DNA from: Podarcis pityusensis
Lineage: Eukaryota
Direction: 5' to 3' (one strand)
Length of the DNA: 64,000 bases
NCBI GenBank assembly: GCA_964106645.2
Contig: OZ067039.1
In this document: positions 22,174-28,039 of the stretch, one piece after another
Layout of the letters: every line of letters starts with the position of its first letter
Position numbering within the stretch: position 1 is the stretch's first letter
Notes under the pieces: generated by a model
The model's input: the letters and a program-made list of their open reading frames with translations, nothing else
Databases searched by the model: none
Told to the model about the DNA's origin: nothing
Position numbers and translations under genes: made by a program

Positions 22174-22322
22174 CATTTACTGTACAAAACTGGCAGCCTC
22201 CGTGGCAATTCTGGCTCTTAACAACCTTTCCCCCTCTTCCTTTCAAGAGGGTACCATGGAGGTAGCTCCAGTCATGTAGTGTAGAATCCAAAGCCATTCT
22301 TATGACTAGGAAATAGAAGATG

Positions 22323-22332
22323 CAAGATGGCG
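22323..22332 (+). promoter_or_regulatory. YY1-type motif at the LINE 5' end (putative internal promoter)
   Basis: CAAGATGGCG starts at nucleotide 8 of the element, like the YY1 site at the 5' end of mammalian L1. Confidence 0.55.
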
Positions 22333-22586
22333 ACGTGAGCGGCAGCCTTGTCTTATGCTCGGTAAAGCTATGTTTTTACTATCTGCTTTGATGGGTTCTA
22401 AGGGCTCTAAGATGCCTTAAGGCGTTTATTTTAGAAGTTTTATGGTTTAGATTATTTCTACTTCTCCCATAAATCTGCAAGAAAACGCGGCAGATAAAGA
22501 CTGTTAAAGGGAGTAGGGCTCATTAACAGCACAACCTGCCCTGACCCTGCTATTTTGAGAAATTTTCTCCCTATTTTCTTGCCGAC

Positions 22587-24038
22587 ATGAGAGGGAAGAA
22601 ACGCCGCAGGCAGCATTCCAATGAAGCTACGAGCACTGCCAAAAAACAGACAAATATCAGGGATTTCTTGCCTGACAATGACCTAAATGAGATCTGTAGA
22701 AACTTCCCCATAGCAAACAGCTATGAGGTCCTTGCTCCCAGTACTACTCATGAGGAGCCTGCCGGCATTGTGGATGGCCCACAACTAGCCTCGAGCCTGT
22801 GTATGAAGGAACAGATGGAACAGACTCTTGAGTCCCTGCAAAAAACTTCACCTGAATTATCCCAGTCACCAGCCCAGTTAAACAAGGACCGAGAGGCACT
22901 GGAACTGCTAATCTGCCAGACTGAGTTGATAACACATACCATCATCAACTTATATAAAAGGCTGGATGGGATCGAAAAGAAGCTTGAAAAAGTCTTTGGC
23001 TTGTTCAGTTGCCCCCCCTCACTTCCTCAGCTTAACAATATTGCAAACTCCTCTCACCCCTGCCCAAGTGTGCAGGCCAACCTTGCACAAAAACAAGTGA
23101 GATGCCTGCCCAACCAAGTACAAAACTCAAGTCTGCAACTCCAGAACAGCAAACTTGCAGTACTGGTGGGAAACCACCCCTTGAATTATAACAAATGGGC
23201 GGATAAACATTTGGTCACAAATTCCCTGACCCAACTGCTGGGGCAGACATTACGCCCCGTAGATATCGTGGACATCTCATGGCTGCCTTCTGGACCTTAT
23301 ATGAGACGTATGGTTATTAACTTTAGATCTGCCCATTTCGTTGCAAAGATTCTAAAATTAAGAAACCGTACAAGAAAATGGTACATCTATTTTACAAGGG
23401 TATTCACCAATCTGACCCGTACACCGCTATGCACCAGGATAGGTGCTGTCTGTGTTGATGCTGGGCCTGTGCGCCATAAAGAACAAATAGACGGGGGAAT
23501 GGAGCCGGGATCTATTACCCCACAGGGAGTGGCAAGCCTGCCCGCAAATGACTTAATTGATTTCCTACACCCCCCGCTTGGTACCCTGGTCTCTACGTGC
23601 AACGAGCCTGGCATTGGACTACCCAAGCAAGACCAGTCTGAAATGCTCTCGTCCTCATATGCCTCGATGCCGGAATTGGAGGCTTCCATTATTCTAAGCC
23701 CAATACGCAATCAAGATCCACAGCTTTTGTCAAATTTTGACCCGCTAGCAGTACCGACGCAAGATGCAGCTGTCGACCTGCTACCTGTACAGCCTATACG
23801 GGTCGGCAAAACCCTTGCTCTGCGAAAACCAGCTGAACATCATGATACATCAGCTGAACAACATGATATTTGTAACGGTGTCATCGAAGATCCTCTGGGC
23901 CAAATCAACCTATTGGCCCCTCAGTTAAAGCTATCACACCTATCTAGGGACCAGCGACCTCAAACCTGGAACCACCAAGCAGGGCAGATAGAGGAGGAGC
24001 CCAGCTCAGGAGCCTCAAACCACCGGAAAAGAGATTGA
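22587..24038 (+). CDS. LINE ORF1 protein, 483 aa (basic NLS-like N-terminus, PIP-like motif, coiled coil, putative RRM-like domain, Pro/Gln-rich linker)
   Basis: Long ATG-initiated ORF inside the TSD-bounded element; heptad-like segment at ~aa 70-135; RRMVINF...KILKLR...YIYF segment resembles LINE ORF1 RRM regions. Confidence 0.85.
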   Translation: MRGKKRRRQHSNEATSTAKKQTNIRDFLPDNDLNEICRNFPIANSYEVLAPSTTHEEPAGIVDGPQLASSLCMKEQMEQTLESLQKTSPELSQSPAQLNKDREALELLICQTELITHTIINLYKRLDGIEKKLEKVFGLFSCPPSLPQLNNIANSSHPCPSVQANLAQKQVRCLPNQVQNSSLQLQNSKLAVLVGNHPLNYNKWADKHLVTNSLTQLLGQTLRPVDIVDISWLPSGPYMRRMVINFRSAHFVAKILKLRNRTRKWYIYFTRVFTNLTRTPLCTRIGAVCVDAGPVRHKEQIDGGMEPGSITPQGVASLPANDLIDFLHPPLGTLVSTCNEPGIGLPKQDQSEMLSSSYASMPELEASIILSPIRNQDPQLLSNFDPLAVPTQDAAVDLLPVQPIRVGKTLALRKPAEHHDTSAEQHDICNGVIEDPLGQINLLAPQLKLSHLSRDQRPQTWNHQAGQIEEEPSSGASNHRKRD

Positions 24039-27000
24039 CTGCCACTATTTCCACCATCACCCTATTTCCACATTCTATCCTGGAATGTGGCGGGATGGCT
24101 ATCTAAGCAGGGTGACGTCGACCTTCTGGATTTCCTTACAAAATTTCAGATTTTATGTCTACAGGAGACATGGTGTCTAGATCTCCATGTCCCCTCTTTA
24201 CAGGGATACGAAGCCTTTGCTACCCCTGCGATAAAACCAAATTCCCGAGGCCGACCTAGTGGTGGTTTAGTCACTTTTGTTTCTACCAAGCTAAAGTGCA
24301 AGGCCCGGCAACAGCAGTGGGTGAAGAGTAACAATGTACAAATCTTACTTATTTCTAGCAGTGAAGGAGGAGATTTCCTTTGCTTTAATATATATATCCC
24401 TCCCATAGGCACCCCTCCCCAGTCGTCACAAATCTGGGAAGATTTAGAGCTATGTTTGGAGAAGGCTGAACTAGAACTCCCTGGCATGGATATCCTGCTG
24501 GCAGGTGATTTCAACGCCAGGATAGGAAATGACATTAATACATACTGCTCTAAATCTCAGTTCCTGCCAGAGGCAGATTGGTTTATTCCCTGGTCCTCTG
24601 ACGATAAGGTCTTGAATAAGGCAGGCATTACATTAATGGAGACTGCCTTCAAACATAATTTGTATAATTTGCATGGTACCCATATGGACAGGTCAGGGGG
24701 TTTCTTTTCTTTTCTTGGACCTAGAGGTGCGAGCGTTATTGATTATATCCTGGTCTCCCCAAAACTCTTGGAGAGGTCACAGGGCTTCAGGACTTTCAAT
24801 AGAATTGAGAGTGATCATCTTCCTATATCAATTTCACTAATTCCCCGTGGTTTGGAGGATCCGCAATACCGCAATCACTGTGCAGACCCACCTCCAACTC
24901 TGGCCCTTCGTAGGCGTAAATGGAACAGCGACCTGGAATCTAAAATCAAACTACACCTGCATTCATCAGACTTACTGGCCTTGAGAGACCAGTGTATCTC
25001 ATCTATTTCTGACCCCTTTTCAACATTTCAGCAGGTCTCAGAGTCGCTCTTCCCACTACTCACGAATTCCAACCCTCCCAAAAAACAAAACAACTTGAGG
25101 GCCTGGTTCGACAAAGACTGTAGGAATCTAAGATCTTTGCTTAGGAAATTACAAAATAAGGTAAAACAGGAAGGGACCCTGTCCTCATTGGAAAACCTGC
25201 ACAGGTGGCGTTCTCATTATAAAAATACTCTAAAATTTAAGAAATCCCTCTACAGAAAGGAACAATGGGAGGCACTTGACAAAGCGATCAAATTGCGGGA
25301 CGACAAAAAGTTCTCGGAAATAATTGCTCAGGGAGTTTCACCCAAAGGGAAAATTGTAACCAACAGTATTTCATCTAACTTATGGTACCAACATTTTTCC
25401 CGGCTATATACAGCTCCAAACATTGCTAAACCGAGCCAGTTCCCTCCTCTTAAAAACGATCTATTAACGGGCTGGGATCCTGTTACCGAATCAGAATGTT
25501 TACAGCTAATTAAAACACTCAAGAATGGCAAAGCTCCCGGTGAGGATATGATTCCTCCTGAGGTGTTTAAACTAAATGCCCAGTGGTGGGCTGCTTTTTT
25601 GGCCCAACTTTTTACGGTAATAAATGATATATGCAAAATCCCAGAAAACTGGAAACTGAGCCTGGTAGCCCCCATCTATAAGAAGGGAGACCCCCAAGAC
25701 CCCTCAAACTATCGCCCCATAAGTCTCCTGGACATTGTGTATAAACTTTATACTCGCTACCTGCTAAATAAACTGGTTGACTGGGCTGACCACTCTAACC
25801 TGCTTAATCCGGAACAGGCAGGGTTTAGAAAGGGCCATAGTACAACAGGCCATTGTTTGGTACTACAGACAATGATAGATAAGTATACAAAGGTACATAA
25901 GAGCAAACTTTTTGTGGCTTTTGTAGATCTCACATCCGCTTTTGATTCAATCTGTAGGGACAAATTATGGCAAAAACTATATGAAACAGATATTGATAGA
26001 CGACTTCTCAAAATACTTAGAGAGTTACATTCAGACACCACAGTTAAAATCAGAACTGGGATGTCAGGCAACTATACTGACCCACTGCCACTGGGGAAAG
26101 GGGTTAAACAGGGCTGTTTGTTAGCGCCGTTCCTCTTTAATTTCTATATAAATGACATTGTTCAACATATGGCAAAGTATAAGTCATCAGCTCCTGCCCT
26201 GGAAGGCAAACACCTGAATATATTATTATATGCTGATGACATGGCTGTCATGGCACTTACTCGAAGGGGCCTACATAGCATGCTGGAGGGGCTCGCAGCT
26301 TATTGTTCCCAAAACTCTCTAAAGATAAATTATGACAAAACAAAAATTGTGGTATTTACTAGAGCTCGCCACACATTTAGATGGTCTTTAGATGAACACA
26401 AAATTGAACAGTGTCTTTTTTTTAAATATCTTGGTATCACTTTCCAAGCTACATCTAGCTGGCTTGCCCACTTCAAGACTGTAGCCCTTCTAACACGTAG
26501 GACAATCGGTGCTCTGCTCAGCTTTTTTTATTCGAGGGGAGGGCAACTGGTGATCCCGGCACTAAAAGCTTTTGTTGGAAAAGTGATTCCCCAGATGCTA
26601 TATGGAGTAGAACTCTGGGGATGGAATCAGAAGCTGTTAGAACGGCTTGAAATCTTCCAAAATTTTTACCTCAGAAGAATTCTAGGCCTCCCTCAGAGTA
26701 CTCCGGCAGCTCTCCTAAGAGTGGAAGTAGGATTACCTTCTGTGTCTGCCAGGGCCCACTTAAGATTCCTGCGTTTTTTCACCAACCTCACAGATGCCCC
26801 GAACACCTTATTGGCTAAACAAGCCTTTGTATCATTACAAAATAATACTACTTGGCATAAAAACCTACTAGATATCCTATCCAGATACAATCTACCTGAG
26901 TTTAATACCCTCAAATTGTGGAGCCCTGATAAAGTTCGGGAATGGATCTTTGAAAAAGACGCCTTTTTGGACTCCACAAAGATAAAAAACTCTGGGTTTT

Positions 27001-27419
27001 CCTACTGGTTTCCCCGAGTAAAAGCAGTCAAAATCTGTGCCAACTACTTGGTGGAGATCACTGATCCCACCCTTCGGAGAGCTTTTACTATGGCACGGTT
27101 TCAAACACTGCCAACTGCATATCTGACCGGTAGATTCACAAAAACCCCAGTAGAACATCGTTTATGCCCTTGCCTTATGAAAATTAAAGAGGATCTTACA
27201 CATTACCTCCTCTATTGCCCCATCTACTCGGGCTTTAGAGACGCATTGCTGCAAATTATACCCAACTCTATAACCAATCCTGAAGATAGAGTAAAATTTT
27301 TGTTAGTCGATGCAAACCCACGTATTACCCATGTGGTAGCGGTTTTTGTGATGAAGGCCATGAAAGCCAGGGAAAGATTTATGTATGACAATGTAAAGAC
27401 CCCTTCATCGTCTGTTTAA
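24039..27419 (+). CDS. LINE ORF2: apurinic endonuclease, reverse transcriptase and C-terminal CCHC knuckle (no AUG start; frame open from 24039)
   Basis: EN motifs ILSWNVAG, CLQETW, GDFNAR, SVIDY, SDHLP; RT motifs NYRPISLL, QAGFR, FVDLTSAFDSI, GVKQGCLLAP, LLYADD, FKYLG; C-terminal CPC-x9-H-x4-C; no stops or frameshifts. Confidence 0.95.
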   Translation: MPLFPPSPYFHILSWNVAGWLSKQGDVDLLDFLTKFQILCLQETWCLDLHVPSLQGYEAFATPAIKPNSRGRPSGGLVTFVSTKLKCKARQQQWVKSNNVQILLISSSEGGDFLCFNIYIPPIGTPPQSSQIWEDLELCLEKAELELPGMDILLAGDFNARIGNDINTYCSKSQFLPEADWFIPWSSDDKVLNKAGITLMETAFKHNLYNLHGTHMDRSGGFFSFLGPRGASVIDYILVSPKLLERSQGFRTFNRIESDHLPISISLIPRGLEDPQYRNHCADPPPTLALRRRKWNSDLESKIKLHLHSSDLLALRDQCISSISDPFSTFQQVSESLFPLLTNSNPPKKQNNLRAWFDKDCRNLRSLLRKLQNKVKQEGTLSSLENLHRWRSHYKNTLKFKKSLYRKEQWEALDKAIKLRDDKKFSEIIAQGVSPKGKIVTNSISSNLWYQHFSRLYTAPNIAKPSQFPPLKNDLLTGWDPVTESECLQLIKTLKNGKAPGEDMIPPEVFKLNAQWWAAFLAQLFTVINDICKIPENWKLSLVAPIYKKGDPQDPSNYRPISLLDIVYKLYTRYLLNKLVDWADHSNLLNPEQAGFRKGHSTTGHCLVLQTMIDKYTKVHKSKLFVAFVDLTSAFDSICRDKLWQKLYETDIDRRLLKILRELHSDTTVKIRTGMSGNYTDPLPLGKGVKQGCLLAPFLFNFYINDIVQHMAKYKSSAPALEGKHLNILLYADDMAVMALTRRGLHSMLEGLAAYCSQNSLKINYDKTKIVVFTRARHTFRWSLDEHKIEQCLFFKYLGITFQATSSWLAHFKTVALLTRRTIGALLSFFYSRGGQLVIPALKAFVGKVIPQMLYGVELWGWNQKLLERLEIFQNFYLRRILGLPQSTPAALLRVEVGLPSVSARAHLRFLRFFTNLTDAPNTLLAKQAFVSLQNNTTWHKNLLDILSRYNLPEFNTLKLWSPDKVREWIFEKDAFLDSTKIKNSGFSYWFPRVKAVKICANYLVEITDPTLRRAFTMARFQTLPTAYLTGRFTKTPVEHRLCPCLMKIKEDLTHYLLYCPIYSGFRDALLQIIPNSITNPEDRVKFLLVDANPRITHVVAVFVMKAMKARERFMYDNVKTPSSSV

Positions 27420-28039
27420 CTCGTTGCTTGTTTTCCCTCTCTTTCTATTTTGTGGGATGAAGGTTTTGTTGGCGTAGTATGTAATGAATTTTAATATTTT
27501 TTAACTATTGTTGTGTTGATGTTTGTGTACAGGCATGGTCCTCACAATAAACGGATTTGATTTGATTTGATTTTGACTAGGAAATAAAGGTAAGTATAAA
27601 ACCCATTTTGTGTTTTATTTTCCCCTTTAAGCAATGCTAGTAATGCGTGAACGAAGAAGAATGGATGTTGAGACTGAGTCATTCCAGGCAGCTCCAACTT
27701 CTGATTGTGAAAAATAATAACACAACCTCTTGGCCAGCTCCATTTTAATGGTAAGCAAATCGTACACCCATGTTGCAGGGAAGCATGGCGATGGGTTTTA
27801 TTCTAAAGTTAAAATACTTAAATGTAGAGGGAAATGGCCCTGCAAAAGTGTGGGTTAATATCTTACGTAGATTTCCATGCACACTGTATCAACTAGGCAT
27901 AACTGGGAGTTCCCCTGTTTCTTTCTAGTATTGTTTTATGAGGTCATTTTGCTCCGTGTTCTGTGCTACTGCCTTCCAGTTTAACTTGGAGAATTTCTAA
28001 AATTTATTTCAGAATCGACGTGCATGCATCATTTGCTGC

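Follow-up and report, generated by a model that had tools for sequence, protein, structure and literature searches.

How the second open reading frame (ORF2) is translated from the bicistronic RNA of long interspersed nuclear elements (LINEs) has long been unsettled, and the cases worked out, L1 and SART1, yield a separate ORF2 protein whose translation has been described as reinitiation or coupling (PMC5972666, PMC5009743, PMC5381506). In the elements of Paramecium that lack long terminal repeats (non-LTR elements), read-through for ORF2 was suggested from the consensus sequences of Group 3, and a +1 frameshift or reinitiation for Groups 1 and 2 (PMC5405496); the passages on these elements give neither a context analysis nor a test of the proposal. 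Readthrough of stop codons is otherwise known from viruses and cellular genes. In Moloney murine leukemia virus and epsilon-like retroviruses the structural and enzyme genes lie in one frame over one stop, and the gag-pol fusion made by readthrough sets the protein ratio (PMC5009743, PMC13517186). UGA-CUA on its own gives 1.5% readthrough, and CARYYA works without the need for a 3' structure (PMC4132726, PMC13517186), while an A at +9 increases readthrough in HEK293T cells (PMC13517186). Here we analyze a 64,000-nucleotide stretch of the 1.5-Gb, vertebrate-sized genome of Podarcis pityusensis (assembly GCA_964106645.2, contig OZ067039.1; hereafter the window), in which a young LINE, family A, has ORF1 and ORF2 in one frame across a single UGA-C. 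The in-frame UGA-C junction in an animal LINE clade is a real feature and apparently new; a search of the full-text literature, with most subscription papers, Repbase and Dfam outside its scope, found no report of readthrough in an animal LINE. Judging from the sequence comparisons below, ORF2 is probably made by programmed UGA readthrough, as a predicted fusion of ORF1 with the endonuclease and reverse transcriptase (EN-RT).

The ORF1-ORF2 junction of family A

The features of the window on which the argument turns are these.

22587..24038, + strand: ORF1, 483 aa, from the ATG at 22587 to the stop TGA at 24036-24038
24033..24044, + strand: predicted readthrough site GAU UGA CUG CCA (-2 A, UGA, +4 C, +9 A), present in 30/30 copies and in the family-level consensus
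24039..27419, + strand: ORF2 frame, 1126 aa, with the first AUG at codon 150
24075..24818, + strand: apurinic-type endonuclease domain (Pfam PF03372, aa 13-260, E 3.9e-15)
24486..24488, + strand: first in-frame ORF2 ATG, codon 150, within the endonuclease

The frame is kept from ORF1 through the single TGA-CTG into ORF2 (GAT TGA CTG at 24033-24041), and the WNV and QET motifs of ORF2, at codons 15 and 42, both precede the first ATG at 24486. A fusion of ORF1, one residue at the stop and ORF2 would total 483+1+1126 = 1610 aa. The initial annotation, made from the letters of the window, had described this shared frame, an ATG lying past both motifs and a fusion of about 1610 aa, and its coordinates, frame and length are all correct.

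A DNA search for further copies, in which 40 of 90 candidates were scored, returned at least 36 near-full matches across the junction probe at 99-100% identity. TGA CTG at 24036-24041 is unchanged in 30/30 loci (the window and 29 copies, 99.0-99.7% identity), and the in-frame stop is therefore a family trait and not damage; the alignment of copies that had been proposed as a check turned up no sense codon, which rules out a copy-specific nonsense mutation. A contig from another organism differs from the window at 78 of 1679 bases with 0 gaps, and no change at 24036-24041 appears among the 40 of 147 rows listed. Between families A and B, the ratio of nonsynonymous to synonymous substitution (dN/dS) is 0.13 for ORF2 codons 1-149 and 0.12 for the remainder, indicating that the codons ahead of the first AUG are under purifying selection equal to that on the rest of ORF2; with equally low values on both sides, the pre-AUG part is therefore translated.

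Stop identity and context in sister families

Sister families were collected by protein searches, with 150 candidates scored in each, and 60 stretches were fetched, of which 58 have the motif in the expected place (the other two are L078 and L162); four loci that seem to have lost their 5' part up to the junction (L065, L157-L159) were excluded. With the window, these stretches formed 20 clusters at 85% identity, one of them a broken family-B copy and two a frameshift lineage described below, the remaining 17 being in-frame families with endonuclease identities of 25-77%. All 17 fall into one clade of the reverse transcriptase (RT) tree with support of 100/100, UGA-C occupies most deep branches, and family B is nested beside A. 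The codons that follow the TGA are as follows.

UGA-CUN junctions (9 families): A CTG CCA, C CTA GCA, D CTA AGA, E CTC TCA, F CTC AGT, L CTG TTA, M CTC GAA, P CTA CCT, R CTA CCC
UGA-CAR junctions (6 families): H CAA AGA, J CAA GGA, K CAG TCA, O CAA AGA, Q CAG CGA, S CAA TTA
UGA-A junctions (2 families): B AAG ACA, I AAT AAG

Of the features that the initial annotation had named as support, the relatives thus show the conserved in-frame UGA-C, with an in-frame TGA in 17/17 families and TGA-C in 15/17. Compared with the 16 intact ORF2 terminal stops (10 TAA, 5 TGA, 1 TAG), the junctions are enriched in TGA (17/17 vs 5/16, Fisher 2e-5), in C at +4 (15/17 vs 3/16, 9e-5), in A at +9 (13/17 vs 1/16, 6e-5) and in TGA-C (15/17 vs 0/16, 1e-7), values that ignore kinship and overstate independence, the families being related and recombining. 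An A stands at -2 in 12/17 junctions, and the flanks are unconserved, columns -9 to -4 and +10 to +18 reaching at most 9/17. Because nine families read UGA-CUN and six UGA-CAR, the contexts fit published readthrough classes, an in-frame stop in a UGA-CUN or CARYYA/CARNBA context being conserved in 15/17 families. Family C, with UGA CUAG, resembles the UGA-CUA(G) sites of alphaviruses and mammals; all six UGA-CAR junctions match the CARNBA of the tobacco mosaic virus and yeast class, and K and S are exactly CARYYA. Unlike in those cases, both motif classes alternate within one LINE clade, and the predicted product is an essential enzyme of 1100 aa and not a short extension.

We propose that most ribosomes would stop at the UGA, leaving free ORF1 protein (ORF1p) in excess, and that a small share would insert a near-cognate residue there and continue into ORF2 to give the 1610-aa fusion; by analogy with PMC4132726, that share would be ~1-2% if UGA-CUN acts alone. 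The signal we infer is the local sequence A-N-UGA-C[U/A]N-NNA and not a conserved hairpin. Such a fusion would set a constant ORF1p:ORF2p ratio and would keep the enzyme tied to the ORF1p coat, as well as to a motif in ORF1 described below.

That the in-frame UGA-C is a functionless inherited relic, with ORF2 supplied in trans or as a truncated AUG product, would agree with the single ancestor of all families. We regard this as exceedingly improbable: +1 to +4 and +9 are retained while neighboring positions have been scrambled, the endonuclease half ahead of the AUG is under purifying selection, and the frame survives swaps of ORF1. Such ORF1/ORF2 chimeras, with the swap near the junction and the frame kept, are found in B (L063), E2 (L143, L310-L314) and O (L141); in E2 the would-be second stop reads as sense TGT, a single insertion within a duplicated block and weak evidence.

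More serious is the proposal that ORF1p is released at the UGA and that an AUG-independent restart on a nearby codon, CUG in family A, gives a separate ORF2p. Reinitiation has been proposed for mammalian L1 and coupling shown for SART1 (PMC5972666, PMC5009743), CUG does adjoin the stop in family A, and slow termination at UGA-C could itself favor a restart. Reinitiation, however, requires neither a single frame nor a single stop identity, yet 17/17 families are in frame with TGA. An AUG ahead of motif I is absent from 15/17 families, I and P being the exceptions. A CUG directly after the stop occurs in A and L only (2/17), in families E, H and R the stretch from the stop to motif I contains no near-cognate start, and in C the sole one is a GUG three codons ahead of the Trp; CUG initiation, which the initial annotation had held to be the main alternative, is therefore rejected as a general mechanism. 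An in-frame AUG at the stop was found in 0/17 families (four carry an out-of-frame AUGA), and UGGGA, the core of the termination upstream ribosome-binding site, occurs within 100 nt upstream in only 2/17. Taken together with the distant relatives and the -1 lineage discussed below, the latter left unexplained by reinitiation, these observations make a restart unlikely as the route to ORF2.

Several observations nonetheless weigh against readthrough, beyond the kinship of the families noted above. Family support is thin in places, F and O resting on one damaged locus each and H on two loci. Family P (L144) keeps UGA-CUA, yet an AUG lies five codons ahead of its motif I; family I (L129, L128) has UGA-AAU, an in-frame AUG and a 64-codon spacer in an L1-like layout, so that usable AUGs are present in both. 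Family B joins an I-type ORF1 (49% identical) to an A-type ORF2 and is young, with 19 copies at 99-100% identity; it has UGA-AAG and 60 open codons without AUG, its ORF2 is under selection, and TGA AAG is found in 17/17 countable copies, 15 of them with a clean open spacer. Family B thus functions without AUG or UGA-C, and UGA-C is dispensable for ORF2 expression in the clade. Either weak UGA-A readthrough suffices in B, or AUG-independent restart exists in the clade, the latter lending some weight to the reinitiation alternative. The UGA-AG junctions of fish and frog retroviruses (UGAAGA, UGAAGU) resemble the UGA-A of family B (PMC13517186). In human L1, ORF1 lies close to ORF2 and AUG-independent initiation is thought to operate (PMC5009743). 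Lastly, no fold is shared across 14 families.

Removal or recoding of the stop, by splicing, by A-to-I editing of the UGA or by insertion of selenocysteine (Sec) through a Sec insertion sequence (SECIS), could be read from the junction stop being always UGA in this genome, and from the TAG-G junctions of distant relatives, which resemble a 3' splice site. This we consider very unlikely. In families A, E and P the sequence from the stop to motif I contains no AG, and canonical splicing therefore cannot drop the stop yet retain the motif. No SECIS match was found in 22200-27700 at E<=1, and a SECIS was discarded as a candidate with just three chance-level Rfam matches. The stop is unpaired in predicted folds, and the distant relatives use UAG, which is not decodable by Sec. 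As a 3' splice acceptor TAG-G was rejected, the upstream pyrimidine tract being missing (0.42 vs 0.45 background).

Hairpins downstream of the stop

Two hairpins were considered in the window.

24068..24090, + strand: stem CCACATTC/GAATGTGG (24068-75 complementary to 24083-90), present and not conserved
24075..24098, + strand: alternative hairpin CUAUCCUG/CGGGAUGG, 37 nt past the stop, common to families A and C only

The first stem had been put forward as the stimulator of readthrough. Its two arms do pair perfectly, yet the fold of 24036-24135 has z = -1.1, with 26/200 shuffles folding equally well, z = -2.95 being reached only with a 60-nt cut, and against synonymous recoding p = 0.09. The stem is absent from family C. 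In 2/30 family-A copies 24089 G>A disrupts it, with no compensating change listed, and in the contig from the other organism 24086 T>C does so, with no compensating change among the 40 of 147 rows listed. Single-family folds reach p<=0.05 in 4/17 families. With no conserved structure across families, a hairpin was rejected as the general stimulatory signal; of the initial reading, then, the fusion by UGA readthrough is strongly backed by the comparisons (stop identity and context in 17 families, the terminal stops as an internal control, selection ahead of the first AUG and the -1 sister lineage), and the hairpin as its signal is unsupported. The LINE families also differ in this from alphaviruses, having no conserved extended stem.

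The alternative hairpin comprises 24 bases identical in A and C, and in its region 6/7 degenerate codons are identical vs a 40% background, a level that 2/534 windows reach. Both 24089 G>A and 24086 T>C fall in its loop, and 24080 C>T preserves a wobble pair; covariation in the A/B/C consensus fold was found at 1/21 pairs only. The hairpin may be a lineage-specific helper stem.

A sister lineage with ORF2 in the -1 frame

Lineage G, together with two relatives at ~70% DNA identity (loci L164-L178, with the junction exemplified by L165:1621-1750), has GTT TTT TTA in ORF1 and carries ORF2 in the -1 frame, which opens 3-4 codons before U_UUU_UUA and has no AUG before motif I. U_UUU_UUA is the -1 slippery site of human immunodeficiency virus type 1. 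The arrangement is found in 12/15 loci; an extra T fuses the frames in two and it is altered in one. Lineage G is thus a candidate for programmed -1 frameshifting, which would be a second way of arriving at the same fusion, with polymerase slippage as an alternative explanation.

Junctions in distant relatives

The scan for distant relatives covered 134 loci drawn from collections of metagenomes, prokaryote genomes and viral sequences, all of them eukaryote-type LINEs. Of these, 53 include an endonuclease start, three of which are open at the contig end, and 33 of the other 50 have an upstream ORF of >=200 aa; among the viral contigs, 0/11 loci offered a usable junction. Adjacent ORFs are in frame in 23/33 (19 TAG-G, 2 TGA-CGG, 1 TAG-A, 1 TAG-T). 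A Met before motif I is absent from 22/23 of these adjacent cases and present in 7/10 of the others, so that the out-of-frame relatives mostly possess the AUG, which speaks against reinitiation without one. The TAG-G cases lie on several deep branches of a quick tree, and TAG-G is found at 0/30 ORF2 terminal stops.

In-frame ORF1-TAG-G-ORF2 without AUG: L179, L186, L190, L197, L199, L202, L205, L206, L209, L211, L212, L214, L215, L217, L225, L229, L232, L253, L097

A G-run at +11 to +15 (~8 nt past the stop) in the TAG-G relatives recalls gammaretroviral sites. A search for a pseudoknot or stem after UAG-G gave no more than a weak excess (a mean score of 8.3 vs 7.2), and six close relatives yielded an unconvincing consensus fold. 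That the distant hosts use an altered genetic code is unlikely, ORF2s of 1100+ codons containing no TAG and 6/30 ending in TAG.

On balance we lean, with less assurance than for readthrough in the window element, towards a wider reading in which a widespread animal LINE clade would make EN-RT only as a fusion and swap the recoding signal, UGA-C in this vertebrate, UAG-G in invertebrate-associated relatives and a -1 U_UUU_UUA in one lineage, with a few families having turned to AUG reinitiation. In this the clade would differ from the Paramecium elements, which form a separate ciliate clade. Three points that weigh against readthrough apply here too: 17/23 adjacent cases trace to two assemblies bearing a single isolate tag, no 3' stimulatory structure was found after the -1 site of lineage G (z -1.3 to +1.2), and leakiness of UAG-G depends on a 3' stimulator (PMC13517186). 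Together with the UGA-A exception and the -1 lineage, the 17 junctions make up a naturally occurring set of vertebrate readthrough contexts.

Gene callers and repeat libraries truncate ORF2 proteins of this kind at an internal Met. A clear ORF1-ORF2 fusion was seen in 0/62 protein-search relatives, which are gene-caller products without DNA context and hence uninformative.

Two very distant metagenome LINEs, L084 and L123, have an in-frame ORF1-TGA CGG-ORF2, another published readthrough context. Many prokaryote assemblies, mostly symbiont metagenome-assembled genomes, hold eukaryote-type LINE contigs (L179-L258), probably through host contamination.

The ORF1 protein

Two features were located in ORF1.

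23124..23438, + strand: predicted domain resembling an RNA recognition motif (RRM) (AlphaFold2 pLDDT 89, 11-row alignment)
22647..22670, + strand: motif QTNIRDFL, resembling a PCNA-interacting protein (PIP) box (Q-x-x-I-x-x-F-F/L)

The ORF1 of family A is homologous to those of the sister families, and no Pfam family was found in it, hence no esterase. Tested as a LINE RNA-binding domain, the core of ORF1p has a predicted RRM-like fold, a fold match only: RRMs dominate its VIA match list (best Z 7.5), Foldseek of the model gave no match at E<=0.001, human L1 ORF1p ranking 33, and an ESM Atlas search reached a top score of 0.88 with unnamed clusters, a lead only.

By its fit to the PIP-box consensus, QTNIRDFL is a putative PCNA-binding motif. 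A PIP-box-like motif is N-terminal in the ORF1 of families A, C, D, E and I and in K, L, M, P, Q, R and S it lies 23-32 aa ahead of the TGA, the distance to the junction stop being 23 residues in six families. No PIP-like match was found in 13/16 intact ORF2s, that of family A included; L1 ORF2p carries its own PCNA-binding motif. The ORF1-ORF2 fusion may thus supply PCNA binding through the PIP-like motif of ORF1. A Gag-Pol-like fusion, if true, would mean a different particle assembly, and the tether could account for the protein ratio, for cis preference and for the recruitment of PCNA.

Architecture and classification of the window element

The remaining parts of the element are listed below.

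22303..22315, + strand: 5' copy of a 13-bp target-site duplication, identical to the 13-mer at 27574-27586
22316..27573, + strand: full-length young LINE of family A, with an apurinic/apyrimidinic endonuclease (APE-type), its ends matching 10 other copies
22323..22586, + strand: 5' untranslated region (UTR), beginning at CAAGATGGCG, as do 10/10 full-length copies examined
25680..26444, + strand: reverse transcriptase domain (Pfam PF00078, aa 548-802, E 5e-36)
27165..27218, + strand: C-terminal CCHC finger, with C1043, C1045, H1055 and C1060 unchanged throughout an alignment of 30 relatives
27546..27573, + strand: AATAAA followed by an (ATTTG)n tail, from the sequence
27574..27586, + strand: 3' copy of the 13-bp target-site duplication, matching 22303..22315

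The element is an intact young APE-type LINE. The hallmarks of a LINE are all present, namely a target-site duplication, a simple-repeat 3' tail, 5'-truncated copies and no LTRs, and Pfam places an N-terminal AP-type endonuclease and an RT in ORF2. Of the 10 other full-length copies, most are flanked by target-site duplications of their own, 12-18 bp long, and 7/30 family-A loci are 5'-truncated, beginning within ORF1 or the UTR. Between the target-site duplication and CAAGATGGCG, presumably a YY1-like motif, the full-length copies have variable extra bases (22316-22322 in the window; L300-L309).

The element shares with L1 and SART1 a bicistronic APE-type LINE RNA, ORF2 after ORF1 and an ORF1p with an RRM, in the window element a predicted one. 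It is unlike L1, in which a 63-nt spacer and an AUG lead to a separate ORF2p, and unlike SART1, in which an overlapping stop-start with downstream structure does so. It does not belong to the L1 clade: its tail is (ATTTG)n and not poly(A), and L1 ORF2p, a distant match at E 1e-26, does no better than R2 does (5e-24). From gammaretroviruses it differs in being non-LTR, in its RRM-type ORF1 and UGA-C context and in having no protease to cut the fusion, and no pseudoknot was found.

We presume the element to be RTEX-like, as a lead, from features that we associate with that group: an APE endonuclease, an RTE-like RT, a C-terminal CCHC finger, a long ORF1 and a short-repeat tail. The CCHC finger is present and RNase H is not listed by Pfam, a combination that fits RTEX and is not unique to it; ORF1 is full-length (483 aa) but has no esterase, which occurs in some RTEX members. 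The RT trees contain unlabelled relatives only, with no labelled RTEX references. A long ORF1 sets RTEX apart from RTE (PMC3905857), and the group is treated further in PMC11203168, PMC5753468 and PMC3905857.

A 38-Mb contig of the genome carries a disproportionate share of the LINE matches, an excess that might be explained, among other ways, by its being a sex chromosome rich in repeats.

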